Shown here: piece by piece, positions 5,689 through 45,845 of the stretch
How positions within the stretch are numbered: the first letter of the stretch is position 1
How the letters are laid out: each line of letters begins with the position of its first letter
Virus record (IMG/VR): IMGVR_UViG_3300020050_006875
Location: 3,580 to 67,579 of that record
DNA: 64,000 nucleotides
Source of the DNA: a virus
Lineage: Duplodnaviria > Caudoviricetes
Reading direction: 5' to 3' (one strand)
Position numbers and translations under genes: made by a program
The notes under the pieces: generated by a model
Seen by the model: only the letters and a program-made list of their open reading frames with translations
Told to the model about the DNA's origin: nothing
The model's database searches: none

Positions 5689-5980
5689 TTTTTCTAAGTT
5701 CTTCTGCTTTGTCAGGGGTGTAATAGAATCGGGAACTGTCATCCACTACGGAGACAAGCCTCTTAAAAGGGAGGCTAAGATGCACTTCAATAGGCTGATG
5801 CATCACGCTACAGAGTTTGAGAAGTATTTACACCAAGGACTTGGCCCAGAGATGGCTAAGGCTGAGGATGAAATCAATTCAGCCATTGTTAATATGGTGT
5901 GGAACTTGTATGACCTCCCTTCTGAGGAGAGGGAACGATTCATTGATCATATGAACGAATTCAATCCAATAAAAGAATGA
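5678..5980 (+). CDS. hypothetical protein
   Basis: 100 aa from ATG 5678; overlaps both neighbours. Confidence 0.65.
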   Translation: MKNDFSKFFCFVRGVIESGTVIHYGDKPLKREAKMHFNRLMHHATEFEKYLHQGLGPEMAKAEDEINSAIVNMVWNLYDLPSEERERFIDHMNEFNPIKE

Positions 5981-23206: not shown

Positions 23207-24265
23207 TTAAAAATTACTTTGAACGCCCACTATCCTTAGTCCTCCAACAGTTGGGCCTTTAGCAGACATCACTTGTTTCGGGTCTATGGGTGAGACATTA
23301 TTTTGCGGCACTTGATTGTTCAGCGTACGATTGATGGCTTCAACTGCCTCCTTAGGGGCTGCCCTACGAGCTGCTTCCAACATCGCTGGAATCTGACTCT
23401 TGAGCATCTCTAATTCAGCCATAGCAGCGGCAGCCTTAACATTAGGCCACACATTGCCATTCTTGTCAAGCGACAACGGCACAGCGTCACTATAAACAAT
23501 ATCCCGAATCTTGCCAGCATCCACCTGTGGAAGATTATACCCCGGAATTCCCAAGGACATTTCCATAGGCTTCAAATCCTTTAAGCTGCCCTCAACGATT
23601 GACTCGTACTGTTGTTGGTATCCGTCAATGTCAAAATCAGCCGTTTGGGGATTCCTAGCGGCTTCAAGTTTCCCTCTAACCTCCTGCTGTTGGGCGATGA
23701 GATTTTGGCGAATGCCCTCGGCTTGCCAAGCAATTGCATCGTAGTCCTCTTCAGCGAGTCCAAGATTTTCAGGTATATCAAAGTCAATATCGGGATATTG
23801 CCTTCTCAAATGTGCTTCAATGTGGCGGTCTGTCTTCGCCCAAGGATTAGCCTCCTTGAAGGCATCTTTGATGAGGTCAAGAACACTCTTGCTCTCAAAG
23901 TTCTCATTCAACATCTGCAAAATAGCAGGGTTGTCCAATAACTCATTCACCTCATCAGGTAAACGATATTGAATTGTAGGCTGGGCAGAAGAACTAGCTT
24001 GTAGCTTCTCTTCCATTTCAGCCAATTTTGCCCTCAGTGATTCTATATCCTCTACTTGAGGGGCATCTTCTTGGGCTACGGGTTCTACATATTCCTCCTG
24101 CGGCACTTCCCCCTCTTGTGGAGGAATGTCATAATCAGGAATACTTATAGACCTAACCTTGAACGGGTTCTCCGCCGATTGCAGGCTCTCCTGCTGGTTC
24201 TCCGGCTGGTAAGCCAGGGACTCCTGCTGGTTCTGCACCTCCGCTTGCACTTCCTGTGTTTCCAT
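23207..24265 (-). CDS. capsid scaffolding protein
   Basis: 352 aa, very E/Q-rich N-terminus, helical; between portal and MCP. Confidence 0.7.
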   Translation of the reverse strand: METQEVQAEVQNQQESLAYQPENQQESLQSAENPFKVRSISIPDYDIPPQEGEVPQEEYVEPVAQEDAPQVEDIESLRAKLAEMEEKLQASSSAQPTIQYRLPDEVNELLDNPAILQMLNENFESKSVLDLIKDAFKEANPWAKTDRHIEAHLRRQYPDIDFDIPENLGLAEEDYDAIAWQAEGIRQNLIAQQQEVRGKLEAARNPQTADFDIDGYQQQYESIVEGSLKDLKPMEMSLGIPGYNLPQVDAGKIRDIVYSDAVPLSLDKNGNVWPNVKAAAAMAELEMLKSQIPAMLEAARRAAPKEAVEAINRTLNNQVPQNNVSPIDPKQVMSAKGPTVGGLRIVGVQSNF

Positions 24266-26447
24266 ACATTTTATCTATTTCTAATTGTATTCTTTGCAAA
24301 ATTACTTCAGGATTAGCACTATTCATAGGATTTGCAAAGGCAGCCTTCGCATACTCCTGAATTACATTGCCAAATATTTTTAATTGCTCTAATTTTTCTT
24401 TCCCTTGTTGCGCCTGCTGATTAGACATCATTTGTCTTTCAGTGTTCGCTTGGTCAGCCATTTGTTGACCTTCCATCTTCTTGATGTCATTCCTCTTCTG
24501 CTGTACGGAAAGGTATCCCCATGCCTGCTTCATATTGTCTATGATTTGCAAATAGGCATATTGATCCATTGTTAAACTTCCTGAAGCTAAGGCTTGTTGG
24601 GCTTTGGCATAAATGTCTTGCCATTGGGCATCTGTAGGCAGAGGCTCAACAATAAGATTTGGAATGCGCTCGTCAGGATTGCCGGGAGGAATAGCGAATG
24701 CTTTGTTGTTTGCCACCCCTGCTTCCCCTGTCTGCATAATGTCATACATCAGGTTCTCCCAAAGAGTTGAATAGAGACGAATCTTAGAATCCATCAATCC
24801 AGACAAAACATTGTCGCTTCCGTTTAGAAGCATTTGCGTTACGGCTTTCCCCACCTCTGGGTTCACGCCTCCTCCTGTGTCCACCTTTGGAACACCAACA
24901 ACATCGTGAAGGAGATTTATCTGCTGAAGTAACAAACTCCATAGCACCTGAAGATTACCGCCACCATCATTTCCTATCATGGCTATGGAATCTTTCACGG
25001 AAGCATTATGGAAGCCCTTGTACGCAGAGGATGATACAACGCCTAAACCACGCTCCATAAGCGTTGTCATTAGGTCTTCTGCTGTTACATCATCTCCTTC
25101 CTTCATAGCAAGGTCAGCCAAGGCATCTTGGTCCACCCGTATCATCCAAGGAAGGAACTCCTTCACATAAGTCTTAAACTTCTTGAAAGTATCTTCAATA
25201 GCATCAATGTGTGGCTTGGCTCTGTCAATGATGGAAACACTTTCACCCCTCACCATTGAGGAATGATGCCACACGAATGAGCCGTACACCTTAGAGGCGT
25301 TTACTTTAAATGCGTCCTCGTTCCTTGTTACGATAGGTTGACGAACGCCTGGTTTGACACCATAGTCGTACAGATATCCGCTTCCGCAAATGTACTTACC
25401 CCCGAAGAGGTTCTGTACCTTAGCTGTGTAAACATCACCATCTTTTCCGGGAGTCTTTTTGGAATATCCATTGTAGGCTTTTCCATTCTTAATATTGGTG
25501 TAGAGTACATCTGTGGAGACATACTCAAAGTCCATGACGAGTACATAGTCGGTGTATGTGTTGGTGAATGTGGTGAGGTAGTTGTTGTTGTTGTTTGTCC
25601 ACCAATACAACCAATTGTACAGGATGGAAAACTGCCCCCCACGAAGATTGCTTAACTCCTGGTCTGTGAGAAACTCCTGCGCTTCGATGCGTACTTGCTC
25701 AACCGGCACAGGGCGTATTCTGTAACTCCAAACAATATCACGCCCATCAGGATAAAAGGACATACTATGACCACTATTAAGTGGGTCAAGCCATTCGATT
25801 TGTCTCTTTCCATTTACTCTATTTATATAATGGCCTCTTACAGATGTGATGGCATCATCATAGTCAGCCATACGAGCAAGAGTTTCAAGATTATTCTCAT
25901 GACCTATCTTGCTAAGAGCAAGTTCTAGATTCATCTCCTCTACGAACTGAGGCATACAGTCAAGCATTATCTGCAATTCTGTAGTGTCCATAGGGACTTC
26001 ATCAGGCATCAAGCCAAGTTGCTGAAGGTATTGACCCATCTCTGCACCTTGTTGCTTTAACATCATAGCCAATTCCATCTTGGCTTTTATGTCTTGCCTT
26101 TCGCCCATTGCCAACGCATCAATCATTGACACGGATGGCTTAAACTTCTGCTTGTTGAGTTTTCCTACAATACTTTCCAATATTGTAGCCGTAAGTTTCA
26201 TATTACGGAGGTCAGCACCAAGCAGTGTTTGTGAATCGTTTGCTCCTAAATTGTCTATGGGTTGCACAGTACGCAAGTAGGATTGGTTACCCATTGCGTA
26301 TTGATAGTTCTCTGCCCACCTCCTACGAGGAAAGTTTGGACTTTCAATTTGCATCAAGTGGAATGATTCCAAACCTTGGGCAAAGCTTTTGCCAAACTCA
26401 TTTGACTTTTTCTTGTCAAAGGGGACGGTGAGATCAGGTGCAAACAT
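24153..26447 (-). CDS. portal protein
   Basis: 764 aa; NYQYAMGNQ...NMKLTATILESIVG N-terminus, LHDVVGVPKVDTGG, Q-rich crown-like C-terminus; size and position of crAss-like portals. Confidence 0.8.
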   Translation of the reverse strand: MFAPDLTVPFDKKKSNEFGKSFAQGLESFHLMQIESPNFPRRRWAENYQYAMGNQSYLRTVQPIDNLGANDSQTLLGADLRNMKLTATILESIVGKLNKQKFKPSVSMIDALAMGERQDIKAKMELAMMLKQQGAEMGQYLQQLGLMPDEVPMDTTELQIMLDCMPQFVEEMNLELALSKIGHENNLETLARMADYDDAITSVRGHYINRVNGKRQIEWLDPLNSGHSMSFYPDGRDIVWSYRIRPVPVEQVRIEAQEFLTDQELSNLRGGQFSILYNWLYWWTNNNNNYLTTFTNTYTDYVLVMDFEYVSTDVLYTNIKNGKAYNGYSKKTPGKDGDVYTAKVQNLFGGKYICGSGYLYDYGVKPGVRQPIVTRNEDAFKVNASKVYGSFVWHHSSMVRGESVSIIDRAKPHIDAIEDTFKKFKTYVKEFLPWMIRVDQDALADLAMKEGDDVTAEDLMTTLMERGLGVVSSSAYKGFHNASVKDSIAMIGNDGGGNLQVLWSLLLQQINLLHDVVGVPKVDTGGGVNPEVGKAVTQMLLNGSDNVLSGLMDSKIRLYSTLWENLMYDIMQTGEAGVANNKAFAIPPGNPDERIPNLIVEPLPTDAQWQDIYAKAQQALASGSLTMDQYAYLQIIDNMKQAWGYLSVQQKRNDIKKMEGQQMADQANTERQMMSNQQAQQGKEKLEQLKIFGNVIQEYAKAAFANPMNSANPEVILQRIQLEIDKMYGNTGSASGGAEPAGVPGLPAGEPAGEPAIGGEPVQG
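24297..24304 (-). promoter_or_regulatory. promoter embedded in the portal 3' end
   Basis: TAATTTTG 31 nt upstream of the scaffold ATG. Confidence 0.55.
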
Positions 26448-27134: not shown

Positions 27135-30100
27135 TTATTGAACTATTGCCGAATTGTTTTTAACTTCAATAAAATTCAGTTTCGTGAATTTCTGAGGGTC
27201 AAATGCAAAAATAGAATATAATATCCTACTTTCCATAAGTTTTCCACCAAGCACTCCTCCCGGTGTGTTATATGCTCTACGAATTGCTGCCTCCCAATCG
27301 CTCTTTCTTTCTATCCACCATCCATCTGATATGTAAGAAAGTAGTGGCGTGTTGGCTATAGCGTTGTCAGGAAGCCCTGAAGACAAGTTGGTACTAATTG
27401 GCTTTGGGCCATAAACCTTTATCTGATTCCATTGCTTAACAACAGCAGGAGACTGATTGCTAATTATTGTAAGAGCAGGGTTCTTGTAGTCCCCGAAAAA
27501 CTGATTATCGTTAGCCGTTAAACTATTAACATCTGTCACCCAAACTTGTCCATTAAAGAAATGGAACATTTTTGTACTCAAACTTATGCCTCTTTCGGGG
27601 GAAATTGTACCCGAAAAATAATCCCTTTCCCCTTGAAAAGATTTAAACCTTTCGCTAAAAGCATAGTGAGGTTTATTCTTAGACCACACGCTCACCTCAT
27701 CGGTTACTTGGTCATAGATGGACACAACATCTGTTTTGCCGTGAAGATTCTTGCGAAGTAAGTTTCCGAATGAATGTGTTAGCCCTATCCTTTCAAGCCC
27801 AGCATTTGTGTAACGGACAAAATCATTGATAATGTCGCTCCACCAATAGACAGTGGCTAGCGGAGTGCGTGTTATACTTGCTGGCTGACTGCATCCCATC
27901 TGCCCAAGAAGAGGTCTTTGAGATGCGAGATACTTGTCGGTGGTGGTTACATTACTCTCGCCATCAGTATTTGTCAACTGAATGGAATCGTAGTAGAACG
28001 AACTAATTCCATATGTTCCTATAGCAAGCAATACTCCTGGTTCTCTCTGTGTAGCATTCGTAGTCACAAGAGATGTGATAGGACCATTCTCCAATGGGGC
28101 TTGCCTAAAGTCCACAGAATTAAATTTACTCAATCCATTTATTTGTGTACCTTGAATCAAAGGATCAGAGAAAGTGATTCCATTCTGAAGGCGAACTTGT
28201 TGCTGAGTCTCATTGACTATATTGATTTGACCTATATCGGAAACCCAATTTTGAGAGTATATGTCGGATGGGTTCATGGAAATAAACATCCCATTAACCT
28301 CTACAGCAGGGCTTATTAGATTGCGAGTAGCAAATTGCAACGGCACAACAGAACTTCCAGATGAGCCAAAAATTATAGCCACTGATGTTAGCGAAGGAGC
28401 AAAAAACTTTTCAAATGCTGTTGTATAACAATCCCCTTCAACAACCCCTGAGAATGGTTGGCCATTAACAAATTCATCCCGTGTAAAAATTTGACTTCCC
28501 TGATAAAAAATATTCTCTCTACTATTCTTTTTTGAATAGAACTCTACTTGATACCATAAAGGACTGAATGCAGCAACAGGCTCTGAAGTCACATTACCTC
28601 CATTATTTGTTGATGGGGATATATCTGTTCTTGCGGTTTCAAATAAAAATATAGCACCATCCTGACCTGAAAGTTTATATTCCGTAGAACTAACTTGCGC
28701 TCCAGTAGCTAAGGTTTGAGAATACTCATTGGTTAATCTTATATACTGATTCTCTTCAGAAGAGTAAACAAATGGCAAAGGGGATATTCCCTCTACCCCA
28801 TATCCTTTAAGTGTGTAAGCCTTTTTGTCAACATCGGAAATAACCACCTTAGCAGGGAATTGATTTTGAAGGCTTGATACTGCTAGGTATTTACTATTAA
28901 AAACAAATTTATTTATCCCACTACCATCCTGATACCAATAAAATATTCTACACAAGGTCTTGTAGAAGTAATTTACATCTTGAGCCTTGGTTGCCACAAC
29001 CCTAAAAGATGAAGCCCAAGTGGGAAGGTTGCCGGTAATAGTATATTTTACCTCATGCCTGTTAAAAACATAATCATCATAAATCTCTGTTGGTGTAACA
29101 GAATTTTGAGGAACTGTTGTCACTTGTGTTACTGCTGCTTTAGAGCGTGGTATTGTTATTGTTTTATTAGCAACAACTCCTATAGTCCGCCCATATTCAT
29201 CCAACAATTCAATCCCAAAACTATATGTCGATGACGGTCTAAAAGACCTAACATTTACTACAGAATTAAGTGCTTCAGAAACTGGAGGTGGGAATACCGT
29301 GATTGCTTGAGGGACTACACTTAATTCAATATCATTAAATTGAGGATAGTCGGAAAGATAGTTTCCGTGGTTAAGCCTATTCTGAGCAATTTCGTTTGCT
29401 TGAGATTGCAATGGAACTGCATCAAATCTTGCATTGGTGATGTTGGTTGATACGGGAGTCCTCTGTAGATTTTGCAAGTCTGCACTAACAAAACTTATTG
29501 ATGGGACATTCTGAATATCCACTACAACTTGAGCAGCGGTTATTGGAGATCCTGGGTTTACATTGAGCCTTGGGAAGTAGCCCGGAAGCGATGTTGGAGA
29601 TATATAGTTGTTGATATCATTATCCTTTATCGCTGCTATATACTCTATTCCATCATTGTTCTGCCTGTATACAAATACAATTCTCTTTATTAGATTTTTG
29701 CCTTGTATGTAATTCTGAAACTCGTAAGCAGGAACTTGAGTAACAATATCTGTCTTCCAAAATATTGGTTCAGACCAAGGGGCAAGCCTACTTTCCTCAT
29801 CATTGTCATATACATAATAATAAGAAAATTGATAGGCAGAATCATTCCCAAAGCCAGTGTTGTTATACACCTCTGGTTCTGTTGCGTAATCCTTACTAGC
29901 CTCTTTTGGAGTCCAACTTGTGTTAAGAATGTACCACAAACTATCGAACCAACGAATCATTGTGTAAACATCTAAAGCAATTCCCGGCTGCCTCTTTATC
30001 TGCGTGTAATACCATTCCTCAGCAGGAAATGGATAGGTGTCCACTTGTGTGCCATCCCCATCTTCCAACTTCTGTGTGCGAATGCCCTTTGCGACATTCA

Positions 30101-30503
30101 CCATCCTCGGCTGATTCACATTGTCTGTCCAATAAAGCTTGCCATCAATGGCAGCCATAGACACATTCATTGTTGTGTTGAAGTTGAGCCAAGAGCCTCT
30201 TACAATCCTCTCTATAGAATTGTCACTACCCCTCACCAAATAAATGGCGTGGTTGCCGTTGCTGTTATACAAGGCGAAGTAGACAACTTGTGCCTCAAAG
30301 TCATCCATCACACCGACAACAAGATTATCACCAGCAGGAATGGCATATTGTAATTGCTCATTCCCATTGAGGAGAATACCTCCCGAAAGGTTTGTGTTCT
30401 CCACAGATGCGCCAAAGCGAAGGTTGCTTGCAGCCCTCGCCTCGTTTGGCTTTATCACCCTGTCATCAATGTCTGGGTTAACCCTGTCAATCCTGTGTAT
30501 CAT
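27135..30503 (-). CDS. tail stabilization/muzzle protein (P22 gp10-like)
   Basis: 1122 aa; DDRVIKPNEARAASNLR N-terminus, LYWTDNVNQPRMVNV, QNRLNHGNY, FSERFKSFQG; typical of crAss-like muzzle proteins. Confidence 0.8.
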   Translation of the reverse strand: MIHRIDRVNPDIDDRVIKPNEARAASNLRFGASVENTNLSGGILLNGNEQLQYAIPAGDNLVVGVMDDFEAQVVYFALYNSNGNHAIYLVRGSDNSIERIVRGSWLNFNTTMNVSMAAIDGKLYWTDNVNQPRMVNVAKGIRTQKLEDGDGTQVDTYPFPAEEWYYTQIKRQPGIALDVYTMIRWFDSLWYILNTSWTPKEASKDYATEPEVYNNTGFGNDSAYQFSYYYVYDNDEESRLAPWSEPIFWKTDIVTQVPAYEFQNYIQGKNLIKRIVFVYRQNNDGIEYIAAIKDNDINNYISPTSLPGYFPRLNVNPGSPITAAQVVVDIQNVPSISFVSADLQNLQRTPVSTNITNARFDAVPLQSQANEIAQNRLNHGNYLSDYPQFNDIELSVVPQAITVFPPPVSEALNSVVNVRSFRPSSTYSFGIELLDEYGRTIGVVANKTITIPRSKAAVTQVTTVPQNSVTPTEIYDDYVFNRHEVKYTITGNLPTWASSFRVVATKAQDVNYFYKTLCRIFYWYQDGSGINKFVFNSKYLAVSSLQNQFPAKVVISDVDKKAYTLKGYGVEGISPLPFVYSSEENQYIRLTNEYSQTLATGAQVSSTEYKLSGQDGAIFLFETARTDISPSTNNGGNVTSEPVAAFSPLWYQVEFYSKKNSRENIFYQGSQIFTRDEFVNGQPFSGVVEGDCYTTAFEKFFAPSLTSVAIIFGSSGSSVVPLQFATRNLISPAVEVNGMFISMNPSDIYSQNWVSDIGQINIVNETQQQVRLQNGITFSDPLIQGTQINGLSKFNSVDFRQAPLENGPITSLVTTNATQREPGVLLAIGTYGISSFYYDSIQLTNTDGESNVTTTDKYLASQRPLLGQMGCSQPASITRTPLATVYWWSDIINDFVRYTNAGLERIGLTHSFGNLLRKNLHGKTDVVSIYDQVTDEVSVWSKNKPHYAFSERFKSFQGERDYFSGTISPERGISLSTKMFHFFNGQVWVTDVNSLTANDNQFFGDYKNPALTIISNQSPAVVKQWNQIKVYGPKPISTNLSSGLPDNAIANTPLLSYISDGWWIERKSDWEAAIRRAYNTPGGVLGGKLMESRILYSIFAFDPQKFTKLNFIEVKNNSAIVQ

Positions 30504-30507: not shown

Positions 30508-30515
30508 CAAAGTTA
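30508..30515 (-). promoter_or_regulatory. promoter overlapping the stop codon of the upstream gene
   Basis: TAACTTTG in which TAA is the stop codon of 30513-35837. Confidence 0.5.
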
Positions 30516-33500
30516 CTTCTTATTTGCCTGCTTTACATATCGTCTCCACACAGCAGCTCCAGCCATCTTCTCACTATATTTCTTTTTAAGAACTTCATCT
30601 AACACCTCCAATTTCTTGACAACAGTTTTTTCTTGCTCAAGATATTGACTCTTATAGTTCGCAGCTTCTTCGGGAGTGAAAATTTGATTGAACGGCTTTT
30701 GCACCATCTTCACTTTGCCATTAGGTTGCTTTTGCTGAATCTTGATGTTAGGATTAGTCCCAAGCAATACGCCTTTATAGAAGTCAATACGATCCGCTTC
30801 CTTAATACCGGCAGGAGCAATCTTATCATCAGCAATTTCCGCAAAAATAGCTGTCCTGTCTTTAAATGCGCTTTGTGGAGATAGTTTCTCAAAGTTATCA
30901 AAAGCAGTTTTAGCTTCTTCTACATCGCCATTTTCAATAGCATAAGTCATCCTATCCTTTTCGTGAGCAGCTTCGGATGTGTAAGGCTGAATGTTCTTTT
31001 CGTAGATTCCTTTCTCAAATTGCAGAGCAAGTTCATCGTTGGCAAATCTATTTGCGCTACTCTTTGTTGACTGCATCCATTTGGAAAATTCTTTCACATC
31101 CATATCCTTGAGGTCGTTATAATTCACCATCATAAGGTTTCGGATGTATTCGCCTCTTGTCTTAGAAAACAAATAGAACTGCTCATCAGTCATTGCTTTT
31201 TCATTGCCGTCAATGTCAATGTAAGAAGCCCCGTTTCTTTCAGGCTTACTTGTCACCTGGTTCTTGTCAGCCATAAGCTGCCAAAGTTTTTCATACTTAC
31301 CACCTTCTGAGGATGAATATAGAATGTTCAACTTTGCTGGTGGCATCTCCTCGCCAAGTCCATTAACAGTATTGAAATATTGGTCTCTTGCATACGGAAT
31401 CGTACGAAGCATCTTTCCAAGATATGTTCCTCTGTATTCCTTGTCTGGAATGTCTAACAATCTTTGAATCAATAGGGCATTCTGCTGATAGAAGTTTGTA
31501 CCAACAACAGGAACAAAGGATGTACCCATCTTTGATATCCAATCCGTTAACTCCTGAGTTGGGTCTTTCCCCCTAGTCCCGCCTAAGATTGCGGATAAAA
31601 ATCCTTCTACAGAAGATAGGTATGAAGACTCGGCAATAGTTGATAGCATCACCTGAATTGGCAACACCAACTTATTCATATCCGATTCGTTTATCTTTTT
31701 GTTGTGATACTTTTCATAATCACGAACTGCGCCCACAACAGACAAGATTCCCATTAACGGAGTAAGTTGATAACTCCACCAGGTGTCTCCTATTTTAATG
31801 CTATACGGCTTCCATCCACTAGCTTCAAGTTCCTTATTCTTCTTGTAGTCTCCGTAGCCTTCTGCCGTGATTCTAAACCAGTTCTTCTCCTCGTCCTCGT
31901 CATCACCACCCACTGCGCTTAATATATATGCAGACACGGCAGCAGTAAGCCCCAATGTGGCACTTCTCACCATCCTTGCCTTATCCTCGTCTGTAAACTC
32001 TTTCTGTCTGCCCATTAAAATAGATCCACCTCTTGCGGCTCTGACATATCCTAATGGCGTGTAGTTTATGACATTGTTGGCAACATTGGCAATCGTGTTT
32101 GTGAAAGGAATAGCAAGACTTGCTAGTTTAACATTATGCTTTACACCATTCAAGAACCTTGCTCCTACACCCAAAGTACCTGTTGGAGGATTGGTGAATG
32201 TACCTTTTGCTGCAAAGTCATGAGCATCAGCAACCAAAGATTCAGGGCGATTCTGTTCGATAAGGTCGTAAACACGCCTAAATCTTTCCATGCCCGCAAC
32301 TCTTTTCTTTATTGCTCTCTGCTTTTTTGAAAGAGTGTTATCGGCTTCTATTCTTGCTACCTCCTCATCGTATTCTATTTTAGCCGTTTCCCTTGCAGCT
32401 TGATATTGTGCATCAGTTTGCCCTAATATTTCTATGGCTTTTTGAACGGCATCAACAGATGGATACTTATCTCTTGCTTCTGACAGAGCCTTTTGATAAG
32501 CCCTCATTTCACGCAACCCTCCATATGTTGAAGCATCAGAAGCCAACATAAAACGAGTTACATATTTCAATGATTGGTATGGACTAAGTTTATTAAACTT
32601 GGCTCTCTCCAAAATACCCATCGCTTCGTTGCGAAGTTTCATTGGGGGATATCCTGTAACAAGAGTTGTTCCTCCTTCTAAAGCACCATTGCCTAACCCT
32701 ACAGAAAGTCCTTTCAAAATAAATGGAAGGTCTTTTCTATTTGTTATAGCTACATCAAACAATAAGGTTGACATATTGAACACATTGCCAAATATGTTTT
32801 TAGCTTGTGTAACTGGTCCTGATAGAATAGCAGCCATCCAAATAGCCGTTCCTAAATCAATTGCATCTATCCCTTTAAGGTTTGCTTGATAGTTTAAAAG
32901 GTCAATAATGGCTTTCTGCTTTGGCTTTCCTTCTGCTGCTTGTTGAACCTTCTCTGCAAGTTCCGTTATAGCGGCTGCATTCTCTGCGGTGAGTTCTGGG
33001 AAGCCCATAGCCCTTGCGTATTCCTCCTTAAATGCTTTTTCATCAAGCGCACCAAGATTGGACAGTTCAATTAGTTTTTGTTCGGCAGTCTTGCGTACGG
33101 GAGTTTTCCTTGTAAGTCTTCTTTCAATTGTATTGAGGGCTTGTTGCTTTTTCTCGGTGGCAATCTTAGTGAACACCTCATTAACCTTATCGGCTATGAT
33201 GGCGGCATCCCCTTCATCCAATCCAAGTTTTTCAACTAAGGCTTCTGTTAAAGCCTCCTTAGTGCGCTCGCCTTCTGAATAGTGTTGCTTTATAACTTCA
33301 CGAATCTTAATGCCAGATTCTTTCAGGATGTTCTGAATATCCTTCTCTAAGTCCGTAGCAATATGTTTGGCTACCTCCGTGTCAGTAGAATAACCTGTAC
33401 CTCCCACTTTCGCCTGGGCATTCTTGTAGGCAGCTTTTAAATATGGCCTAACTTTCTTACCGAAGTCCTTAATCATCTCCTTACTGAAATCAGCAAAACT

Positions 33501-35837
33501 TCTTGCTCCTGCTTCAATGTGGTAGGCGGCAATGGTGATGAGTTCTTCAGGAAGTGGCGTAGAGAATAGTTTTATATTCTTGAGAGCCTTTTTAGCGGCT
33601 TCGTAAATAGACTTCGTTACAATCTTATTCTTCTCTCCCCAACTCTTGGATCGTGTAGCTTCAGGAGCAGGAGTGGTGTCAGCTACTACAGATTCAACGG
33701 CAGCAGCAACGGCCTCATCATCAGCCTTCTTTAAAGCTGTTTTGAGTTTGTCCATTTTACCTTTCTCTGCTGCAAACCTTTTATTTTTCTGTCTGTCTAT
33801 TTCTCTTTGTGCTGCTAATAATTGACCGTCAGGAGTAAGGAATTCAAATAATGATAAAGCCTGGATACCTTGTCCCCAATCTGTTGACATTTCAGAAATT
33901 CCTTCGGCTACATCAACGGCATCTTGAAAATTTCTTTCTTTGTTGTATTGCTTAATAAGCACTTGAGCAAGTGTAGTTCTGAATGCAGATGGCATTTGTC
34001 TGCTAGATGTTAGCACCATCTCTTTTGCCTTTTCCGTTCCAACAGCATTCAGAATAGCATTGGCTTCTTGTGTGCTTACCCAGTTGGGCAAAACCTCATA
34101 CATAGTCCGCTCCCCACCAAGAGCCTCCTTTACAGAATCAGAAATATCTGTAGCTTCTTTAATAGAGGTGATGAACTTACGCTCTTTAGTTTCTCCACCT
34201 TCAGTAGAGGCTTGTTTTTTTTCTGTTGGAGGAGGCGTTACAGGAGGCTTTTCTGTTGGAGGCGTTCCTATTTCTCTGCCCGCTTTTTCAGCATCTCTTT
34301 TGAATTGCTCCGTAGCAGAGTCAATATAGTTTTGCCATTCCTTTATATCTTCTCCCTCTTTCTTCAAATAGTCAATCCCTGCCTGAATAGCTTCGTAAAC
34401 AGTCTTTCCTGCTTGGTATGCTTTCAAGATGGTAGTGACAGTAGCATTCCATAGCCCAGCATTCATTGCCAAGCCTCCCTCTTTCCAATAGAGGTCTTTA
34501 AGAAACTTCTCTACACGATCCTCTGCTTTAACAGGCTTGATGAGAGGTTCAATAAGTGCCTTTGTGAACGCACCATCCATTCCGTTACCTAACACTTCCT
34601 TTGCAACTTTAGCATCGGCAGGGACAGGATAGGAAAGAGGCAAGTCCATAAGACGCTTCATCATTTCAGGTGTCACCCTTTTTATTCTGCCATCAGGCAT
34701 AATGATGCGAGGAACTTGAGCCGAGGAACTTAAAAGTGTTGGAGATGGATTGCCAGCATTTGTAGCAGCCGCTTCTCCTTTGTAAGCAGAAGCACCCATT
34801 GTAATAATAGGTTTTGAGGCATCTAGTCTGCCATCTGCTATCATTTCATCAATCCTTTCTTGCTCCCAGTTCTTCTCCTTTGTCCTTGTGGTGAATGGGG
34901 CATCAGGCGCATCATCAATCAAATCCTCTACGGCCTTATACCAATCACCCTGCTTCTTCTTACTTGGAACAGCAGGAAGTTTACCATCTTTTACGGCACG
35001 AACAAATAGCCTATTTCTATTTTGAGAGCCTCCAAAGTCTGCGGCATTGTATACCCCAACATCGTAAGTGTATCCCGCATCTTCAAGAGCCTTAATAATT
35101 GCATTGAATGGGACGGTGTCTTTATAGCCTGGAACATTCTCAATTGTAACCACAGGAGGCTGTGCTTGACGAATCACCTTTGCTACGGATTCGGCAGAAT
35201 CCATATCGGATTTCTCCACCGTATTGATGTTCTTCGCTTTTGAGAAGTTCTTACAAACAGGAGAGGCGTGAAAGATATCGGGGTTGGCAGCCTTCACTTC
35301 TTGAGGGTCTATCTTTGTTACATCCCTTGCCTCATACTTTGTTCCAAAGGCATCGTTGTAAGCCTTCATATATGTAGGGCTATACTCCACAGCCATCACA
35401 GATTCGGATTTTGGAAGAGCGGCTTCCATTGTCCCGGCTCCCGAAAAGAATGTTGCCACTCTTGGCTTCTCTGCTTTGCGTATATCATCAAGGGCATCCT
35501 GATATTTGGATACATCCTCCCCTTTGCTTTTTAAATAGGCAATGCCTTCGTTTATGGCTTCGGCAAGAGCCTTCCCTGCGCTATAGGCTGCTTTAATGGT
35601 GTCAATGGCGGTATTCCATAAAGCCGCATTCATACCAGCAACCCCTTTTATCTTTCCTTTGTCAAGAGCCGCAAGAACTGGGTCTGCTTTCTTGCCCTCC
35701 GTTTTTTGCTCTCCCTTGCCAAGCCACAAGTCGGGGTTCTCCATCAGATACTGACGCACCTGATTGTAAGACATTGTTTCGCCGGTTTCCTTAAAAGTGA
35801 ATATCCGGGACTGAGGAACGCAAGGAAGTTTAGCCAT
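30513..35837 (-). CDS. large polyvalent ejection protein with an internal C5 DNA methyltransferase domain
   Basis: 1774 aa; MTase motifs FFSGAG, ASPVCKNFS, IENVPG, QNRNRLF, LGNGM at about 34540-35465; helical C-terminal body; located among ejection-protein genes. Confidence 0.85.
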   Translation of the reverse strand: MAKLPCVPQSRIFTFKETGETMSYNQVRQYLMENPDLWLGKGEQKTEGKKADPVLAALDKGKIKGVAGMNAALWNTAIDTIKAAYSAGKALAEAINEGIAYLKSKGEDVSKYQDALDDIRKAEKPRVATFFSGAGTMEAALPKSESVMAVEYSPTYMKAYNDAFGTKYEARDVTKIDPQEVKAANPDIFHASPVCKNFSKAKNINTVEKSDMDSAESVAKVIRQAQPPVVTIENVPGYKDTVPFNAIIKALEDAGYTYDVGVYNAADFGGSQNRNRLFVRAVKDGKLPAVPSKKKQGDWYKAVEDLIDDAPDAPFTTRTKEKNWEQERIDEMIADGRLDASKPIITMGASAYKGEAAATNAGNPSPTLLSSSAQVPRIIMPDGRIKRVTPEMMKRLMDLPLSYPVPADAKVAKEVLGNGMDGAFTKALIEPLIKPVKAEDRVEKFLKDLYWKEGGLAMNAGLWNATVTTILKAYQAGKTVYEAIQAGIDYLKKEGEDIKEWQNYIDSATEQFKRDAEKAGREIGTPPTEKPPVTPPPTEKKQASTEGGETKERKFITSIKEATDISDSVKEALGGERTMYEVLPNWVSTQEANAILNAVGTEKAKEMVLTSSRQMPSAFRTTLAQVLIKQYNKERNFQDAVDVAEGISEMSTDWGQGIQALSLFEFLTPDGQLLAAQREIDRQKNKRFAAEKGKMDKLKTALKKADDEAVAAAVESVVADTTPAPEATRSKSWGEKNKIVTKSIYEAAKKALKNIKLFSTPLPEELITIAAYHIEAGARSFADFSKEMIKDFGKKVRPYLKAAYKNAQAKVGGTGYSTDTEVAKHIATDLEKDIQNILKESGIKIREVIKQHYSEGERTKEALTEALVEKLGLDEGDAAIIADKVNEVFTKIATEKKQQALNTIERRLTRKTPVRKTAEQKLIELSNLGALDEKAFKEEYARAMGFPELTAENAAAITELAEKVQQAAEGKPKQKAIIDLLNYQANLKGIDAIDLGTAIWMAAILSGPVTQAKNIFGNVFNMSTLLFDVAITNRKDLPFILKGLSVGLGNGALEGGTTLVTGYPPMKLRNEAMGILERAKFNKLSPYQSLKYVTRFMLASDASTYGGLREMRAYQKALSEARDKYPSVDAVQKAIEILGQTDAQYQAARETAKIEYDEEVARIEADNTLSKKQRAIKKRVAGMERFRRVYDLIEQNRPESLVADAHDFAAKGTFTNPPTGTLGVGARFLNGVKHNVKLASLAIPFTNTIANVANNVINYTPLGYVRAARGGSILMGRQKEFTDEDKARMVRSATLGLTAAVSAYILSAVGGDDEDEEKNWFRITAEGYGDYKKNKELEASGWKPYSIKIGDTWWSYQLTPLMGILSVVGAVRDYEKYHNKKINESDMNKLVLPIQVMLSTIAESSYLSSVEGFLSAILGGTRGKDPTQELTDWISKMGTSFVPVVGTNFYQQNALLIQRLLDIPDKEYRGTYLGKMLRTIPYARDQYFNTVNGLGEEMPPAKLNILYSSSEGGKYEKLWQLMADKNQVTSKPERNGASYIDIDGNEKAMTDEQFYLFSKTRGEYIRNLMMVNYNDLKDMDVKEFSKWMQSTKSSANRFANDELALQFEKGIYEKNIQPYTSEAAHEKDRMTYAIENGDVEEAKTAFDNFEKLSPQSAFKDRTAIFAEIADDKIAPAGIKEADRIDFYKGVLLGTNPNIKIQQKQPNGKVKMVQKPFNQIFTPEEAANYKSQYLEQEKTVVKKLEVLDEVLKKKYSEKMAGAAVWRRYVKQANKK

Positions 35838-35839: not shown

Positions 35840-36331
35840 CTATTTATTACCTAATTCTTGATCAAAGATAAGAAGTCCTCCAGGACATTCACTAACAAGA
35901 GAAAGCCTCGCAATAAGGTCTCCGTATTCACCCACAGATTTAGTTTGTATCTTCACAAACTTTTGAATCCTCACTTGCACTGTAGCATCCTTTGTTGAGA
36001 AATAGAAGTCGTTATAGAAATCGCCTAAGTCCTTCTCAAGGTCATAAGCAGCATCAAGGATGCCCATCAAATCAATGCCCTCATTGAAGTCCACCTCGTC
36101 CACTTGAGGCATATCAGCTTCGTCTCCTCTGTCGTTAAAGAAATCACGCAGCTTGTAATAGTGTGTGAGTTCATCAGCAGATTCTTTCTCGAAATATTTC
36201 TGCGCCCCGAATAGTCCTTGCTTCTGACAGCAGGAGGCGGCATACTTGTAAAAGTTGGAAGCGTAGAGTTCGTGTCCTACGGCTTCGTTCAGCAGCTTCT
36301 TGTCGCTGGCTTTTAATAGTGATTCTTTCAT
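35840..36331 (-). CDS. ftn: ferritin (non-haem, FtnA-like)
   Basis: 163 aa; HELYAS, Y, ESADELTH, AYDLEKD, QTKSVGE match the ferroxidase centre pattern. Confidence 0.9.
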   Translation of the reverse strand: MKESLLKASDKKLLNEAVGHELYASNFYKYAASCCQKQGLFGAQKYFEKESADELTHYYKLRDFFNDRGDEADMPQVDEVDFNEGIDLMGILDAAYDLEKDLGDFYNDFYFSTKDATVQVRIQKFVKIQTKSVGEYGDLIARLSLVSECPGGLLIFDQELGNK

Positions 36332-36332: not shown

Positions 36333-39300
36333 TTATAGACAATCTTGTTTTATTTTCTCGGACAGGCCGTCCATTATGTCTTCAAAGTTATCTGTGATGT
36401 TCCTCATCCTTTCAAACGCTCCTTTGCCGTGCTTGCCGTCAAAGGTCTTCATCTTAATTTTTGATGGCTTCTTTGTGCCGTCAAATTCCTCGGAGGCAGA
36501 AGATTCTTGCTTGGATGTGAACTCGGCCGTTGGCATTGTTTCTTCAGCAGGCTTTGTTCCTTCTGCCTTTGTCTCCGTCTTCCCGGCAAACACTTCTTGG
36601 GCTTGACCTTGAACAGAAGGCCCAACTTTAACAATCTCCCCTCCGACATTTTGCTTCCATTCCCCATCCTTAAATACCATCTTCCTGGGAGAACCTCCCT
36701 CTCTTTGAGGGGCTATTTCTACGGCATCTCCTTCTTGTGGTGTTCCTGTTGTAGGCTTCTCTTCGGTGGCTTCAATGTATTTCTGCGCCTCTTCTTTTGT
36801 GCCAAATAATTCCCGATTGGCACGAAACCCTTGCTTTCCATTTATAAAAACAGATGAAGTTGTTTCTCCTTTTGTTAATACTTCTGCTTTTACAATATTG
36901 CCATTTGTATCAATAGTAAAAACTTCCTCCTTCTTCGGCTCCTCCTTCTTAGGCTGAGGCTTCTCCACCTTCGGAGCAGTAGGTGTTACAGGGGTGGCCT
37001 TCTTTCTTCCTTTCGGAACAGGGGCGGCAGCCACTACTTCCTCTACTTGGGCAACAGGGGCGGCTTGTTGTTCCGACTTTTGATTTAATTGTTCAACAAG
37101 TTTGTCTGTATTGGAAGTTGATTCAATTACTAAATTAGGGAATAAATCACGCAATGAAGAAATCACCTCATTAGTCGCTATCCCATCATTAACTATTATC
37201 CCACCAACTTGACTTATGTCTGTTATATCACCTTGATGCTCTCTATTGGCAATCAAAGTAAATGGCCCGTCCATATAGGCATTTCCAGATGCAGTTTGTC
37301 CCGTACTTATCCCTCCTGACAAAGGGGCTACATAAAGTTTACCTCCTCCTCGCTGAGGATTAATACCTTTTGTAAAAAGTTCTACAAGGGAATTGTATGC
37401 TTGTGAGATAGAGGCTTTCCCCATTCCATGAGCCACATAATTACTACCTCCCACTTGATTTGCTCTATCAAGAGCTTCATAAGAGTTCATAAACCCTTCC
37501 TCTAAAGCATCTTTGTCTTTTCTATAGACAGCACCAATGGCATCTTTTAATTTTTGTAAAGTTGATTTTTTTCCTGAAAAGTCATAATTACTATACGAAA
37601 CTTCTTCAGCCATTTCTTGCAAAGAGCGTTGCTCTTGTAGTAGTTCTTGAAATTCTTTTTCATGCCTTTCCGCTAATACTACCGCCTCTTTGCTTCGTGG
37701 AGATTTATCTTGCGAATCCTCATTGATATTTAGAATATCAAATCCATCTGCATAATTTTTACCTTCTTTTTTATTTAAGTCGGCTAACTCTTTTTTATGC
37801 CTTTTCTGAAGAGCATTATATCTTTTCTCAAGGTCTTTGCCTTTTTTCTCTATTTCTTCTTTTTTTGATTCAGGCGTTACTTCCTCCGCAGGAACTACTT
37901 GTTCAGGAGCGGCAGCAACTACCTCCTCAGCAGGAGTAATAGGGGTTGCTTCCTCTACAGGGGCTTCCTCCGTAACAGGCTCTTGAGGAACAATTCCTAA
38001 AAGGCTTTCTTCTAAGGAAGGCTCTTCAGCAGGGGAAATTGGTTCAGGTGTTACTTCAGGAGCAACAGGTTCAGGTGTTGCTTGTGGTGGAGGGAACTGA
38101 GGATTGACAGTTCGTATTATAGGAGCTTCTTCAGGAGATGGAACTCTTAGCCCCTCTCCAAGTCCTGCCTCCATTCCTGCGGCTTCAGGCTGAATTCCTT
38201 TCTCAGCCATATAGGCTTCAAGGTTCTCACGAATAGTATTCTTCTCCTCCGTTTCAGGAAGAGCAGCAAGTCCTTCGTAAGCATTCAGCACCTCCTCATC
38301 TGTAGGAGCAGCCTCGTTCACACGCTTCTGATATTGCGCTCTGATTTGCCCTTCCGCTTCGGGGTTGCCTTTAACGGCTTCCTCCATAGCCTGAGCGATT
38401 TTGTTGCGCTCTTGGATTTTATTGTCCGTTTGAACAATGTCCATATCGGCTCTCTGTGTGGTTTTCCTCACATCGCCATAAGTGAAATCACCTTGAGCAA
38501 GTCTCTCCAAGCCACGACCTCCTGCGACTAATCCACCACCTCCAGCAGCACCTCCAACAATATCACTAGCAAGCCTTCTTTGTGTGCTTGGCTTCTGTAG
38601 TTCGCCATAAATATTCTCCCTCGCTTCCTTAAATGATTTAGCCGAGGCAACTTGCGGAGCAGCTACTTCTATTAACCCCTCCGCCCCCTCTGTTAGCCCC
38701 TCAATATTTGCTACGCCTCCAAGAGCAGCGGCAGATGCAGCGGCTTGCTTCCATTTTGTCTTCCCTATTTTATTAAGAGCCAAATCACGAAGATACTTAT
38801 ATGCTCCCTTAGACCTCATGGCTTGACCCAGGAGTCCACTTGAAAAGTAATCTATTCCTCCGCTTATAGCACCTGCGGTGTAAGCAATAACTTCTTTATC
38901 TTTTCCGCTTGCAATAACTTCTTCAGGAGTTGTGTTAGTCTTTCTTGCTATCTCTTCCACCCCAGCTTTATACATATCTGGGACTACTTGAGCAAATGTA
39001 GAATAACCTCCTGTTGTGCCTGCGCCAAGAGCATTGATGCCTATTTGAGCCAAATTGTAGGCAAATGCTTCAGGGAGTCTATCTAGCTGCCCTTTACTTA
39101 TAACATCATAAATGTTGCCTTCGATGTTGTATTCCGCTTGTTTAGCGGCAAAGTCTTGGTCTACTTGGTCAAGATAACCAAGGACTTGTTGCTTAACTTT
39201 CTTTTCTTGTTCTTCTGCCTTCTTTCCCTTCTCTCCAAATGTTAATAATGCTCTTTGTTTAGCACCAAACATAGCCTCAGCGGCTTTGACCTTATTAATC

Positions 39301-40013
39301 ATATTGTCAAAAGTAACCCCCAAAGAAGAACCGAAATCTTTCAGTTTTTGGGTAGCTTCCCTTTGCTCATTAGCCCTTTTTTGCTGAATCTCAAATCCTG
39401 TACCACCCCTCAAAGCAGCCTCCTTCTCTTGCTTTGTCGCTTTAGCAAACTGTCTCTGCGCCTTCCTTTGCTCCTCGGCAATAGGCACATCTTCAAAGGC
39501 TAATTGTTGAGCCTTGAACGCAGGGCTAATTTGCTCTTGCTTCTTTTGTGCCTTAGTTTCAAAGGAAGCAGGAACGCCTCCAAATGTTGCTCCCAATGTA
39601 GGAGCTATCCCTCCGTATTGCTTCTGAAGCTTGACATCGTATTCAGGAGACCCAACTAACGGCTGTGCAGGAGGCGTATATGCTTCCTGCTCCTCCAAAG
39701 AAGGCACTTCAAGAAATTCTTGCTTAGGAGCGGCTTGTGGTTGAGGCTTGGCAATAGGCTCTCTGTAAATAAATGCGTTTGCAAACTCAACAGGGTCTTT
39801 TGAAGCATTCGGATTTTTAGGATCAAGGACAATTCCTCTTTCCGAAATATCCATAAATAAATCCCGAACAAAGTCATTGTTGTCCAACAAGCCGTTGAAC
39901 TTGTTGTATGAAAACTTTTTAACCTCAGAGGCAAGTTCTTTGTCAGAACCGCCAACCAAAGCTGAATATAGTTTTTTCCTTGGGTCAAGCCCATTCGCTA
40001 GTGGTTCTGCCAT
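36333..40013 (-). CDS. large ejection/cargo protein
   Basis: 1226 aa; A/G-rich TM-like helices, E/P-rich linker, AT-rich inserted globular segment. Confidence 0.7.
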   Translation of the reverse strand: MAEPLANGLDPRKKLYSALVGGSDKELASEVKKFSYNKFNGLLDNNDFVRDLFMDISERGIVLDPKNPNASKDPVEFANAFIYREPIAKPQPQAAPKQEFLEVPSLEEQEAYTPPAQPLVGSPEYDVKLQKQYGGIAPTLGATFGGVPASFETKAQKKQEQISPAFKAQQLAFEDVPIAEEQRKAQRQFAKATKQEKEAALRGGTGFEIQQKRANEQREATQKLKDFGSSLGVTFDNMINKVKAAEAMFGAKQRALLTFGEKGKKAEEQEKKVKQQVLGYLDQVDQDFAAKQAEYNIEGNIYDVISKGQLDRLPEAFAYNLAQIGINALGAGTTGGYSTFAQVVPDMYKAGVEEIARKTNTTPEEVIASGKDKEVIAYTAGAISGGIDYFSSGLLGQAMRSKGAYKYLRDLALNKIGKTKWKQAAASAAALGGVANIEGLTEGAEGLIEVAAPQVASAKSFKEARENIYGELQKPSTQRRLASDIVGGAAGGGGLVAGGRGLERLAQGDFTYGDVRKTTQRADMDIVQTDNKIQERNKIAQAMEEAVKGNPEAEGQIRAQYQKRVNEAAPTDEEVLNAYEGLAALPETEEKNTIRENLEAYMAEKGIQPEAAGMEAGLGEGLRVPSPEEAPIIRTVNPQFPPPQATPEPVAPEVTPEPISPAEEPSLEESLLGIVPQEPVTEEAPVEEATPITPAEEVVAAAPEQVVPAEEVTPESKKEEIEKKGKDLEKRYNALQKRHKKELADLNKKEGKNYADGFDILNINEDSQDKSPRSKEAVVLAERHEKEFQELLQEQRSLQEMAEEVSYSNYDFSGKKSTLQKLKDAIGAVYRKDKDALEEGFMNSYEALDRANQVGGSNYVAHGMGKASISQAYNSLVELFTKGINPQRGGGKLYVAPLSGGISTGQTASGNAYMDGPFTLIANREHQGDITDISQVGGIIVNDGIATNEVISSLRDLFPNLVIESTSNTDKLVEQLNQKSEQQAAPVAQVEEVVAAAPVPKGRKKATPVTPTAPKVEKPQPKKEEPKKEEVFTIDTNGNIVKAEVLTKGETTSSVFINGKQGFRANRELFGTKEEAQKYIEATEEKPTTGTPQEGDAVEIAPQREGGSPRKMVFKDGEWKQNVGGEIVKVGPSVQGQAQEVFAGKTETKAEGTKPAEETMPTAEFTSKQESSASEEFDGTKKPSKIKMKTFDGKHGKGAFERMRNITDNFEDIMDGLSEKIKQDCL

Positions 40014-44775: not shown

Positions 44776-45805
44776 AAGAGCCGTTATAAACTTAGATGGG
44801 CACAGCAGCAAAGTGGCAGACGACGAAAATGTATTGCTTAACATTTGCAGGTGTCTTAAAATGCTCGGCATTAAATTTAGTATATACGAGCCACACACAA
44901 GGGGATTCAAGATTTTAAAAGAAGATATGAATCAGCCAGATACATTGTATATTTTAAATGACAGCTTACAATACCACCTTTGCGACATGCCTTGTATTTT
45001 ACTAACAAGAAGTCCATCTTGGGTTCAAGGTGCGCCAAAGAAAAACACAATAGGGGTGGTTACGAAAGAAATGATTTCTTCAAACTATTCGTATTTAATG
45101 GCTTTAATTTATCGCAATGAACAAACAAGACAATTTAGCGACTATTTTGCCGCAAGGACGTATTTGGTTGTAAATGATTACATTAGCGAGAACATGGATG
45201 TTATGCACAGGCATTCAATGGCTATGATTACATGGAATCACCTATCAAAACAAGATATTCATTTTAGCACAAGTTTTCACCAATCAGAAGGGCTGCCTTT
45301 TGTCAATGATATATTGCGTGAAGGTCTTGAGCTATTGTCGCATTCAGATGACATTCTTCTTATAGCTAATAGAGACATTTGCCTTGTAAATGAATCAACA
45401 GCTATAATTCGGGCATACATGGACAGTTTAAATTTAGATTGCTGCTACGCAAGAAGAGTTGATGTCAAAGGGATACCGCACGTTTTATCTTACACAGATA
45501 TTCAGGAATACACCACCTCCCCAGGATTGGATTTATTTGCTTTCCGAAAAACCGCAGCTTGCTTGCCAGAAATACTGGAGACTAATCTATACCTTGGAAG
45601 AATTGGATGGGATGGGTTTTGGGCAGACAAAATGAAAAACGAGCTTCCATTTAAAGTTTGCTACCATCAAGAGCATCATTCAGATTGGACAACTTCAAAA
45701 GGCAGGAAAGAAAACTTACATAACATTAAAGCCATAAGTGAAAAAGAAAATGGATTTGGAGTTATGTGTGATGAATTTGGAGTTCACTATACGCAGCCTA
45801 TATAA
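44759..45805 (+). CDS. glycosyltransferase-like protein
   Basis: 348 aa; LIANRDICL, GLDLFAF, YLGRIGWDGFW, CYHQEH resemble GT-A-like motifs. Confidence 0.45.
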   Translation: MRHQFKRAVINLDGHSSKVADDENVLLNICRCLKMLGIKFSIYEPHTRGFKILKEDMNQPDTLYILNDSLQYHLCDMPCILLTRSPSWVQGAPKKNTIGVVTKEMISSNYSYLMALIYRNEQTRQFSDYFAARTYLVVNDYISENMDVMHRHSMAMITWNHLSKQDIHFSTSFHQSEGLPFVNDILREGLELLSHSDDILLIANRDICLVNESTAIIRAYMDSLNLDCCYARRVDVKGIPHVLSYTDIQEYTTSPGLDLFAFRKTAACLPEILETNLYLGRIGWDGFWADKMKNELPFKVCYHQEHHSDWTTSKGRKENLHNIKAISEKENGFGVMCDEFGVHYTQPI

Positions 45806-45815
45806 AACAAATATA

Positions 45816-45845
45816 GCCACCCCCTTGTGAGGGGTGGCGTTTTAT
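45816..45845. terminator. bidirectional terminator
   Basis: GCCACCCC-CTTGTGA-GGGGTGGC perfect 8-bp stem between convergent genes. Confidence 0.8.

Follow-up and report, generated by a model that had tools for sequence, protein, structure and literature searches.

A complete cytosine-5 DNA methyltransferase domain as a putative exchangeable cargo cassette in a giant internal-virion-type phage protein

Phage-type polyvalent proteins are predicted to be injected into the host together with the DNA (Iyer, Burroughs, Anand, de Souza and Aravind, 2017, J Bacteriol, PMC5512222); the main text of that study mentions only adenine methylases, in the DarB methylase–helicase dyad, and no cytosine-5 methylase. 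A second relevant group is the extended family of T7 IVP-D (gp16, the internal virion protein D) defined by Hardies et al. (2016, Virology, PMC4819975), which includes the ProddE IVP-D, H66 gp60 and the C-terminus of N4 gp50 and whose members have to be linked by staged joining of hidden Markov models (HMMs); in that family, H66 gp60 hosts an S-adenosylmethionine (SAM)-methylase site and N4 gp50 hosts a virion RNA polymerase (vRNAP). A third is found in the crassvirus crAss001, where gp45–gp50, numbered directly after the muzzle gene (gp44), are cargo proteins verified by mass spectrometry; they are stored in the capsid or tail, include a vRNAP enzyme, and are proposed to pass out of the particle in a partly unfolded state (Bayfield et al., 2023, Nature, PMC10172136). 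Here we describe a gene for a protein of 1774 amino acids (aa) in which a complete cytosine-5 (C5) DNA methyltransferase domain is joined to a body that resembles internal virion proteins. It lies in the 64-kb stretch that we analysed (the window), part of a single 67,579-bp virus contig (IMG/VR record IMGVR_UViG_3300020050_006875) from an uncultured phage of ~68 kb. An earlier note on this DNA had proposed a virion-ejected methylase, and the open reading frame (ORF) on which it rested is present as described in the ORF list and its translation. The features that matter first are these:

30513..35837, minus strand: the whole gene, a predicted polyvalent or internal-virion protein with C5 methyltransferase cargo, 1774 aa
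34503..35465, minus strand: the C5-cytosine DNA methyltransferase domain, aa 125–445, with a target recognition domain (TRD) of ~110 aa between motifs VIII and IX
35253..35255, minus strand: the codon for the catalytic Cys195, in motif IV ASPVCKNFS

All of the motifs listed in the earlier note occur in canonical order in the translation, and the domain is complete, as it had claimed: Pfam family PF00145 matches residues 128–429 over profile positions 4–319 of 324 (E 6.6e-32, 111.7 bits against a cut-off of 22). PHROG 116, annotated as 'DNA methyltransferase', matches with an E value of 8e-40. When PDB sequences were searched with phmmer, M.HaeIII and M.HhaI were found, with motifs I, II, III, IV, VI and VIII aligned. 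The FFSGAG of motif I, corresponding to the SAM-binding FxGxG loop, aligns with FSGAGG of M.HaeIII and is conserved in homologues, and Cys195 aligns with the PC cysteine of both enzymes. Motifs VI (TIENVPG) and VIII (QNRNR) are present as well, and domain residues E118, N119, R159 and R161 are invariant in our alignment A1. AlphaFold2, given an alignment with 27 homologues, modeled aa 116–445 with a predicted local distance difference test score (pLDDT) of 92.1 and a predicted template modeling score of 0.90. The best Foldseek matches of this model are ternary complexes of M.HhaI (E 8e-17, TM 0.70), followed by M.HaeIII, Dnmt2 and M.MpeI. The Pfam span and the model both agree with the two-domain fold of these enzymes, in which the TRD lies between motifs VIII and IX and is followed by motifs IX and X. 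The earlier note had suggested an HMM search and a structure prediction as checks on the domain, and both support a C5 methyltransferase, well past anything that chance would give.

In motif IV the catalytic cysteine, one of only two cysteines in the entire protein, is kept, the neighbouring proline is replaced by valine, and a proline is found at position −2 (SPVC versus GPPC or GFPC). This variant, which the earlier note had picked out, is best read as a conserved family signature and not as decay, because all 116 homologous domains compared, which come from long proteins and are 38–94% identical to the query domain, carry the heptad HASPVCK unchanged. Among the commonest variants in these 116 domains, a single one departs from the ENV of motif VI (ENA, in 3 sequences), and none departs from the arginines of motif VIII or the GN of motif X. 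Codon comparisons with two relatives gave ratios of nonsynonymous to synonymous substitution rates (dN/dS) of 0.04 (dS 0.19) and 0.06 (dS 0.74) for the domain and 0.03 in both cases for the TRD, versus 0.10–0.12 for the carrier body in the closer comparison. These values point to strong purifying selection on the domain, with a dN/dS below that of the rest of the protein, and because of them we consider the methylase very likely to be catalytically active. A cognate endonuclease is absent.

The methylase behaves in our comparisons as an exchangeable cargo cassette, because a sister phage keeps the leader and the body of the protein and replaces the methylase block. The segments concerned are:

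35703..35837, minus strand: N-terminal leader, aa 1–45, 78% identical to the same residues of P0075
35466..35648, minus strand: helical repeat module HR1, aa 64–124
34284..34484, minus strand: helical repeat module HR2, aa 452–518
34161..34271, minus strand: Pro-rich linker, aa 523–559, seen in the translation, with the highest dN/dS of all segments (0.21–0.28)

The sister genome (G001, with its locus L006; we call the genome under study, which carries the methylase cassette, G000) is 68,586 bp long with direct terminal repeats, and its muzzle-like neighbour of the cargo gene is 93% identical to ours. Its orthologue of the 1774-aa protein has 2086 aa (L006 2731–8988): the first ~40 residues are near-identical, aa ~45–545 are replaced by an unrelated block of ~810 aa, and from residue 546 on the two proteins are 87% identical, which places the downstream breakpoint of the cassette at ~aa 546. 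The replacement block, aa ~45–857 of the sister protein, matches no Pfam family; we regard it as an effector cassette of unassigned kind in the same delivery slot. Other occupants are found at the same conserved locus in further relatives: P0073 has an ART-like domain on a different body, P0016 combines ART-PolyVal with the methylase, P0008 joins the same N-terminal block to another body, and the proteins of L007 and L008 have no methylase. Full-length relatives (P0002, P0011 and P0016) are 64–90% identical to the 1774-aa protein. We also asked about the alternative C-terminal bodies of P0073 and P0008: a clean HMM found no homology to the body described here, and an earlier hhalign match proved circular (alignment A2 contained the P0073 C-terminus).

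As in polyvalent proteins, then, at least two unrelated domains (methylase and body) are combined and shuffled as modules, with relatives swapping or adding ART-type and other cassettes. The particular combination is rare: of the 115 long proteins that bear the methylase, six have this body, and the methylase is absent from all 149 representatives of the body. The methylase subfamily itself is found mainly in long proteins (562 matches, 975–3105 aa, versus 64 in short ones, many of which are contig-end fragments). Its verified partner domains are InPase, LPD13, LPD3, LPD23, ddrB-ParB, LPD38, PBECR3, PBECR5 and MuF_C, in line with the earlier note's statement that polyvalent proteins collect such methylase domains. 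The gene context of two distant homologues, P0191 and P0080, was uninformative, their neighbours having no Pfam matches.

The methylase is bracketed by the two helical repeat modules (~60 aa each), whose local alignment scores 146 with BLOSUM62; the module recurs one to four times in 67 of 334 collected proteins and, like the carrier body, is not in Pfam. A recent duplication of HR1 and HR2 that could serve as a recombination substrate was ruled out: at the DNA level the two are 66% identical and nowhere match exactly over more than 8 nt, and the duplication is therefore old. The leader begins MAKLPCVPQSRIFTFK and is near-identical across relatives with differing cassettes and even differing bodies. 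It may serve as a signal for packaging or ejection, or else its sequence may be constrained by translational coupling with the ferritin-like gene upstream.

Downstream of the cassette lies the carrier body:

32901..34160, minus strand: N-terminal part of the body, aa 560–979, conserved in the A3 consensus
31038..32900, minus strand: C-terminal part of the body, the conserved carrier domain, aa 980–1600, homologous to the ProddE IVP-D
30516..31037, minus strand: lineage-specific C-terminal tail, aa 1601–1774, conserved only in close relatives

The N-terminal part matches phrog_10089 ('DarB-like antirestriction') over aa 584–973 (E 1.3e-18). Within it, ~190 aa (737–921) show similarity to giant virion proteins labelled 'DarB-like' from podophages of ~60 kb (tblastn, 30% identity, E 9e-5), including those of PBC5, PEp14, Ralstonia phages and others as well as Burkholderia phage JC1 gp69, which mass spectrometry identified in purified virions (PMC9144972). 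The earlier note had cited DarB as precedent; the parallel would be one of function only, since Pfam finds no N6_Mtase, Eco57I or helicase domain in the 1774-aa protein and the sequence likeness is confined to the body.

The carrier domain leads to internal virion proteins by several routes. The PHROGs family phrog_6651 ('internal virion protein') matches aa 1244–1446 (E 4e-13), and tblastn against isolated phages matched the body to the 'internal virion protein D' that Desulfovibrio phage ProddE encodes and to an internal virion protein from P-GSP1. ProddE belongs to the Autographiviridae, and its matched gene occupies the gp16 slot, after IVP-B and IVP-C. To avoid circularity, the body profile that we compared with the ProddE IVP-D contained no ProddE sequence; hhalign nevertheless aligned them with a probability of 99% (E 2.4e-18, 484 columns). 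An HMMER search with aa 980–1774 collected 2,520 cluster representatives (E<=1e-3), nearly all with the match at the C-terminal end of 1000–4100-aa proteins whose N-terminal parts differ, and a Pfam tally of 20 of these 2,520 yielded ART-PolyVal, an Eco57I/N6_Mtase plus ResIII dyad, LPD23 and DUF3293. The structural model of the body, of moderate confidence (pLDDT 70), is almost wholly helical; its fold matches in BFVD include ART-PolyVal, MuF_C and LPD polyvalent proteins as well as internal virion proteins of Synechococcus phages S-CBP2, S-CBP3 and S-RIP1 and of a Pelagibacter phage. Hydropathy analysis marks two hydrophobic helices in the carrier domain, aa 987–1010 and 1293–1311, the latter followed by an acidic DDEDEE patch. 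Based on these observations, the body is probably a carrier of the internal-virion (ejection) type, similar to IVP-D.

The gene's surroundings are those of a virion module, in which these neighbours stand out:

24153..26447, minus strand: portal protein gene of the same operon (phrog_6547, E 6.7e-21)
27135..30503, minus strand: downstream neighbour, a crassvirus-muzzle-like virion protein, 1122 aa (phrog_14478, E 3.3e-23, and a weak crAss_MUZ_C match)
35840..36331, minus strand: upstream neighbour, ferritin-like, 163 aa (PF00210, E 3.4e-16)
36333..40013, minus strand: a second large, variable cargo-type protein, 1226 aa, with ~700 conserved N-terminal aa and a variable remainder

In order of transcription, the genes for the 521-aa, 1226-aa, ferritin-like, cargo, 1122-aa, 224-aa and portal proteins form a tight, co-oriented operon, with gaps of 2 and 9 nt on either side of the cargo gene, and this synteny is kept among the related loci that we compared. 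The TerL gene (46174–48396) lies upstream of the cargo gene; portal, muzzle-like gene and TerL thus share a block with it, and the protein is encoded among virion genes as polyvalent proteins are. The 'muzzle' label used in the earlier note survives in a softened form: the feature neighbours of the 1122-aa protein in the ESM-Atlas are crAss_MUZ clusters (score 0.97), and tblastn matches it to the 'structural protein' gp097 of Cellulophaga phage phi38:1, but its Pfam crAss_MUZ_C match remains below threshold (E 0.0045, 17.8 bits versus a cut-off of 27), and we make the assignment only softly. The note's reading of the product as an ejection-type protein agrees with the homology of the body to internal virion proteins and with the position of the gene in the virion module. 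Because of this homology and the gene context, we think it likely that the 1774-aa protein resides in the virion.

Some further observations concern this region and the genome as a whole. The ferritin-like gene is wedged between two big variable cargo genes, and its position is constant in every relative examined (L001 9414–9905, L002 9503–9997, L006 2237–2728, L007 4342–4833, L017 2414–2905). In L002 the orthologue of the 1226-aa protein has 1638 aa and carries ART-PolyVal plus a weak ExoX-like_C match. The nearest cultured relatives of TerL and of the 1122-aa neighbour, at ~25% identity, are Flavobacteriia podophages (Cellulophaga phi38:1/phi40:1, the Flavobacterium 'elemo' phages and Maribacter Panino), which makes a host among the Bacteroidota probable. 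Outside the structural module, a 675-aa fusion of a primase-polymerase with a DnaB-like helicase (52738–54765, minus strand) contains a weak HicA-toxin-like stretch at aa 246–274 (E 1.6e-4), under the Pfam cut-off.

The earlier note had also pointed to a separate C5 methylase gene, and one is present in the non-structural module:

5977..7494, plus strand: stand-alone C5 methylase, 505 aa (PF00145, E 4.3e-51)

It is only 24% identical to the cargo domain, has a canonical SPCQ motif IV and belongs to a different lineage. Its match to PF00145 is split into three separated stretches, implying large insertions; in the sister genome its homologue sits in a 648-aa open frame. PF00145 genes number two in G000, one in G001 (the stand-alone gene) and none in a more distant genome, G002.

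How might such a protein work? Its architecture, as we read it, is a short leader, an exchangeable effector cassette (HR, C5 methyltransferase, HR and Pro-rich tether) and a carrier body of ~1,050 aa. On balance, and with moderate confidence, we favour a reading in which the body directs packaging, the protein is ejected through the tail, and the entering genome is methylated by the tethered N-terminal enzyme, pre-empting restriction. We infer packaging, ejection, refolding, timing, substrate and target sequence as follows. The protein would be synthesised along with the structural proteins, and the body would steer it into the capsid core beside the portal. At infection the partly unfolded protein would be extruded through the muzzle-type tail, before or with the DNA, and the body would help to form or line a conduit across the envelope. 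The refolded methylase, tethered at the cytoplasmic exit and using host SAM, could then act on its target site in the incoming genome, methylating it ahead of cleavage by type II restriction enzymes of the host, and the separate 505-aa methylase would maintain or extend the protection during replication.

Several points weigh against this reading, and action at entry is its weakest step. C5 methylases are slow enzymes, as the kinetics of M.HhaI illustrate, and a few tethered copies may be too slow in competition with restriction at 75–85 sites per genome. A protein made together with the structural genes could equally well methylate progeny DNA before packaging. For the body, hhalign detected no similarity to T7 gp16 itself (E 0.27), and no solved structural relative was found with a PDB sequence profile, Foldseek against the PDB or a wide VIA-align search, all of which returned only helical-hairpin noise. 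A Pfam scan of the 1774-aa protein found no MuF domain or processing metallopeptidase, and no recognisable capsid-targeting signal was found either; signature LPD, MuF and MPTase domains are all absent at Pfam thresholds, although they are present in homologues that share the methylase or the body. Timing of expression is a further consideration. The 8-mer TATCTTTG lies 26 nt upstream of the start codon of the cargo gene, and the same 8-mer precedes replication genes. Exact copies in the window number five on the minus (coding) strand and one on the plus strand; the former, several of them just upstream of gene starts, are:

35863–35870, 55969–55976, 60579–60586, 60628–60635 and 61311–61318, minus strand: copies of TATCTTTG

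This may be the phage's preferred Bacteroidota-type promoter element, and given such a candidate 26 nt upstream of the start, expression of the cargo gene may not be strictly late. The TAnnTTTG promoter motif, which we also considered, is not enriched in the window (64 observed versus 60.6 expected).

Word statistics, a further point against this reading, gave no help in identifying a target. Most 4-bp palindromes are strongly avoided in G000: observed versus expected counts are 0/49 for CGCG, 14/145 for ACGT, 83/300 for CATG and 58/201 for GATC. Among longer sites the counts are 15/53 for GGWCC, 0/11 for CTGCAG and 0/8 for CCATGG. Four sites, GCGC (0.82), CCGG (0.73), CCWGG and GCWGC, are not avoided. 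The cassette-less G001 and the partial loci L001–L003 show the same palindrome-avoidance profile, and therefore no methylase target site could be assigned from the comparison of G000 with G001 and L001–L003; the earlier note's idea of looking for retention or depletion of a target site in the genome thus tied no site to the cassette. The more distant G002 has a different palindrome profile. The 13 ACGT sites of the window fall in three to four patches (12156–17189, 45158–45923, 6288–6314), mainly inside a 1784-aa gene (12034–17388), and none lies within the methylase cassette; the patches suggest recently imported DNA, perhaps a host-range module.

The rival that best withstands these data holds that the enzyme works in the producing cell, methylating progeny genomes late, before or during packaging and perhaps while anchored at the portal or core; the fusion would then serve only co-expression and localisation, and any later ejection would be irrelevant. 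It is a serious competitor because the enzyme is made while progeny DNA is present: the cargo gene is co-oriented and tightly spaced with the structural genes, no kinetic race with restriction enzymes at entry is needed, and this is the conventional mode for phage orphan methylases, as a later paper that cites Murphy (2013) reports. We still judge it unlikely. The phage already has the stand-alone C5 methylase for that role, the subfamily is strongly biased toward long polyvalent proteins, where its partner enzymes, such as ART, PBECR nucleases and InPase, make sense only in a newly invaded cell, and the cassette sits in an exchangeable slot of the arms-race type.

Alternatively, the ejected methylase might act on a host substrate, either the chromosome (deregulating genes, or blunting or triggering methylation-sensing defences) or, in the manner of Dnmt2, RNA, for example to protect tRNA from anticodon nucleases. 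In its favour, both sequence and fold searches return Dnmt2 tRNA methylases (6fdf in the sequence search, E 9e-5), host molecules are the targets of other cargo domains in polyvalent proteins (PMC5512222), and the word statistics show no relaxation of site avoidance attributable to the cassette. We find this distinctly improbable: the strongest matches are to bacterial DNA methylases that possess an entire TRD, the TRD here is conserved as strongly as the catalytic core, and the few enzyme copies in a virion would be unable to modify a chromosome quickly. Least probable by far is that the domain is kept as a DNA- or SAM-binding module without methyl transfer (for example to clamp the leading DNA end) or transfers another group, like the phage C5-carboxymethyltransferase 8yf3: the proline beside the catalytic cysteine is valine throughout the subfamily and 8yf3 ranks 14th among the fold matches, but the cysteine, the ENV glutamate, both motif VIII arginines and the FxGxG loop are all invariant or nearly so, which a binding module would not need, and the carboxy-SAM synthase CmoA did not turn up in the ORFs scanned against Pfam, with no dedicated search made.

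A bolder extension of entry-time methylation, which we put forward tentatively and think rather doubtful, is that these 'PVC' C5-methyltransferases form a widespread, dedicated class of injected first responders, tethered at the cytoplasmic end of the ejectosome and methylating the genome as it is translocated. They would be the cytosine counterpart of DarB and could do without a helicase, since the DNA would be fed to them by the machinery of ejection; the exchange of Pro for Val might adapt the active-site loop to refolding or processivity.

To our knowledge, no virion-delivered cytosine-5 methyltransferase has been known, and we found no description of a virion-borne C5 methylase in the open-access papers that we searched. 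The kind of protein is nevertheless familiar from polyvalent proteins (PMC5512222), from IVP-D carriers that host cytoplasmic enzymes (PMC4819975) and from DarB-like virion methylases. C5 methylase cargo is an expected extension of the polyvalent and IVP-D concepts and introduces no new principle, although the enzyme is an unusual one to find as cargo. If it does work at entry, phages would pre-empt type II restriction by carrying the modifying enzyme and not the modification, which would also explain why so many giant phage proteins, hundreds of them, carry this methylase subfamily. Three things give the present locus its particular value: a PVC signature shared by the whole family, a clean exchange of the cassette between sister phages, and a natural pair of which only one member has the cargo enzyme. 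In this pair G000 has the cassette, and G001, otherwise a sister by the loci compared, lacks it; the two offer a ready-made comparison. A conserved leader and body around an exchangeable slot further suggest a general delivery scaffold that might be used to inject chosen proteins into Bacteroidota.

Compared enzyme by enzyme, the domain shares its fold, the order of its ten motifs and the position of its TRD between motifs VIII and IX with M.HhaI, M.HaeIII and phage orphan methylases; unlike them, it has S-P-V-C in place of x-P-C, is embedded in a 1774-aa putative virion protein and comes without a restriction partner. The likeness to crassvirus cargo proteins would be one of position, the gene adjoining the softly assigned muzzle gene; the genome is much smaller than a crassvirus's, and no crAss001 chain or other phage virion protein was among the matches of the body profile in a PDB-wide sequence search. 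With P1 DarB and the 'DarB-like' proteins of the Bcep22/JC1 type the protein would share the use of a DNA methylase that is carried in the virion and proposed to shield incoming DNA in cis, and it has the body segment in common with JC1 gp69. DarB itself, however, combines an N6-adenine methylase with an SF2/SNF2 helicase and acts against type I systems, whereas here a C5 methylase without a helicase presumably faces type II targets. As in the IVP-D family, a helical carrier in the ejection slot appears to host an enzyme domain meant for the cytoplasm; the differences are that here the N-terminal enzyme on the carrier is a complete C5 methylase and that the phage is not T7-like, with its muzzle-like tail protein, a genome of 68 kb and a TerL whose nearest relatives belong to Flavobacteriia podophages. 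From the polyvalent proteins ours differs in lacking any LPD, MuF or processing peptidase domain that Pfam defines. Like them it is a long multi-domain protein from a portal/terminase-type virion module with exchangeable effector domains, and its methylase and its body both have homologues in which ART-PolyVal, LPD23, LPD3, LPD13, LPD38, InPase, ddrB-ParB, PBECR and MuF_C occur as fusion partners.

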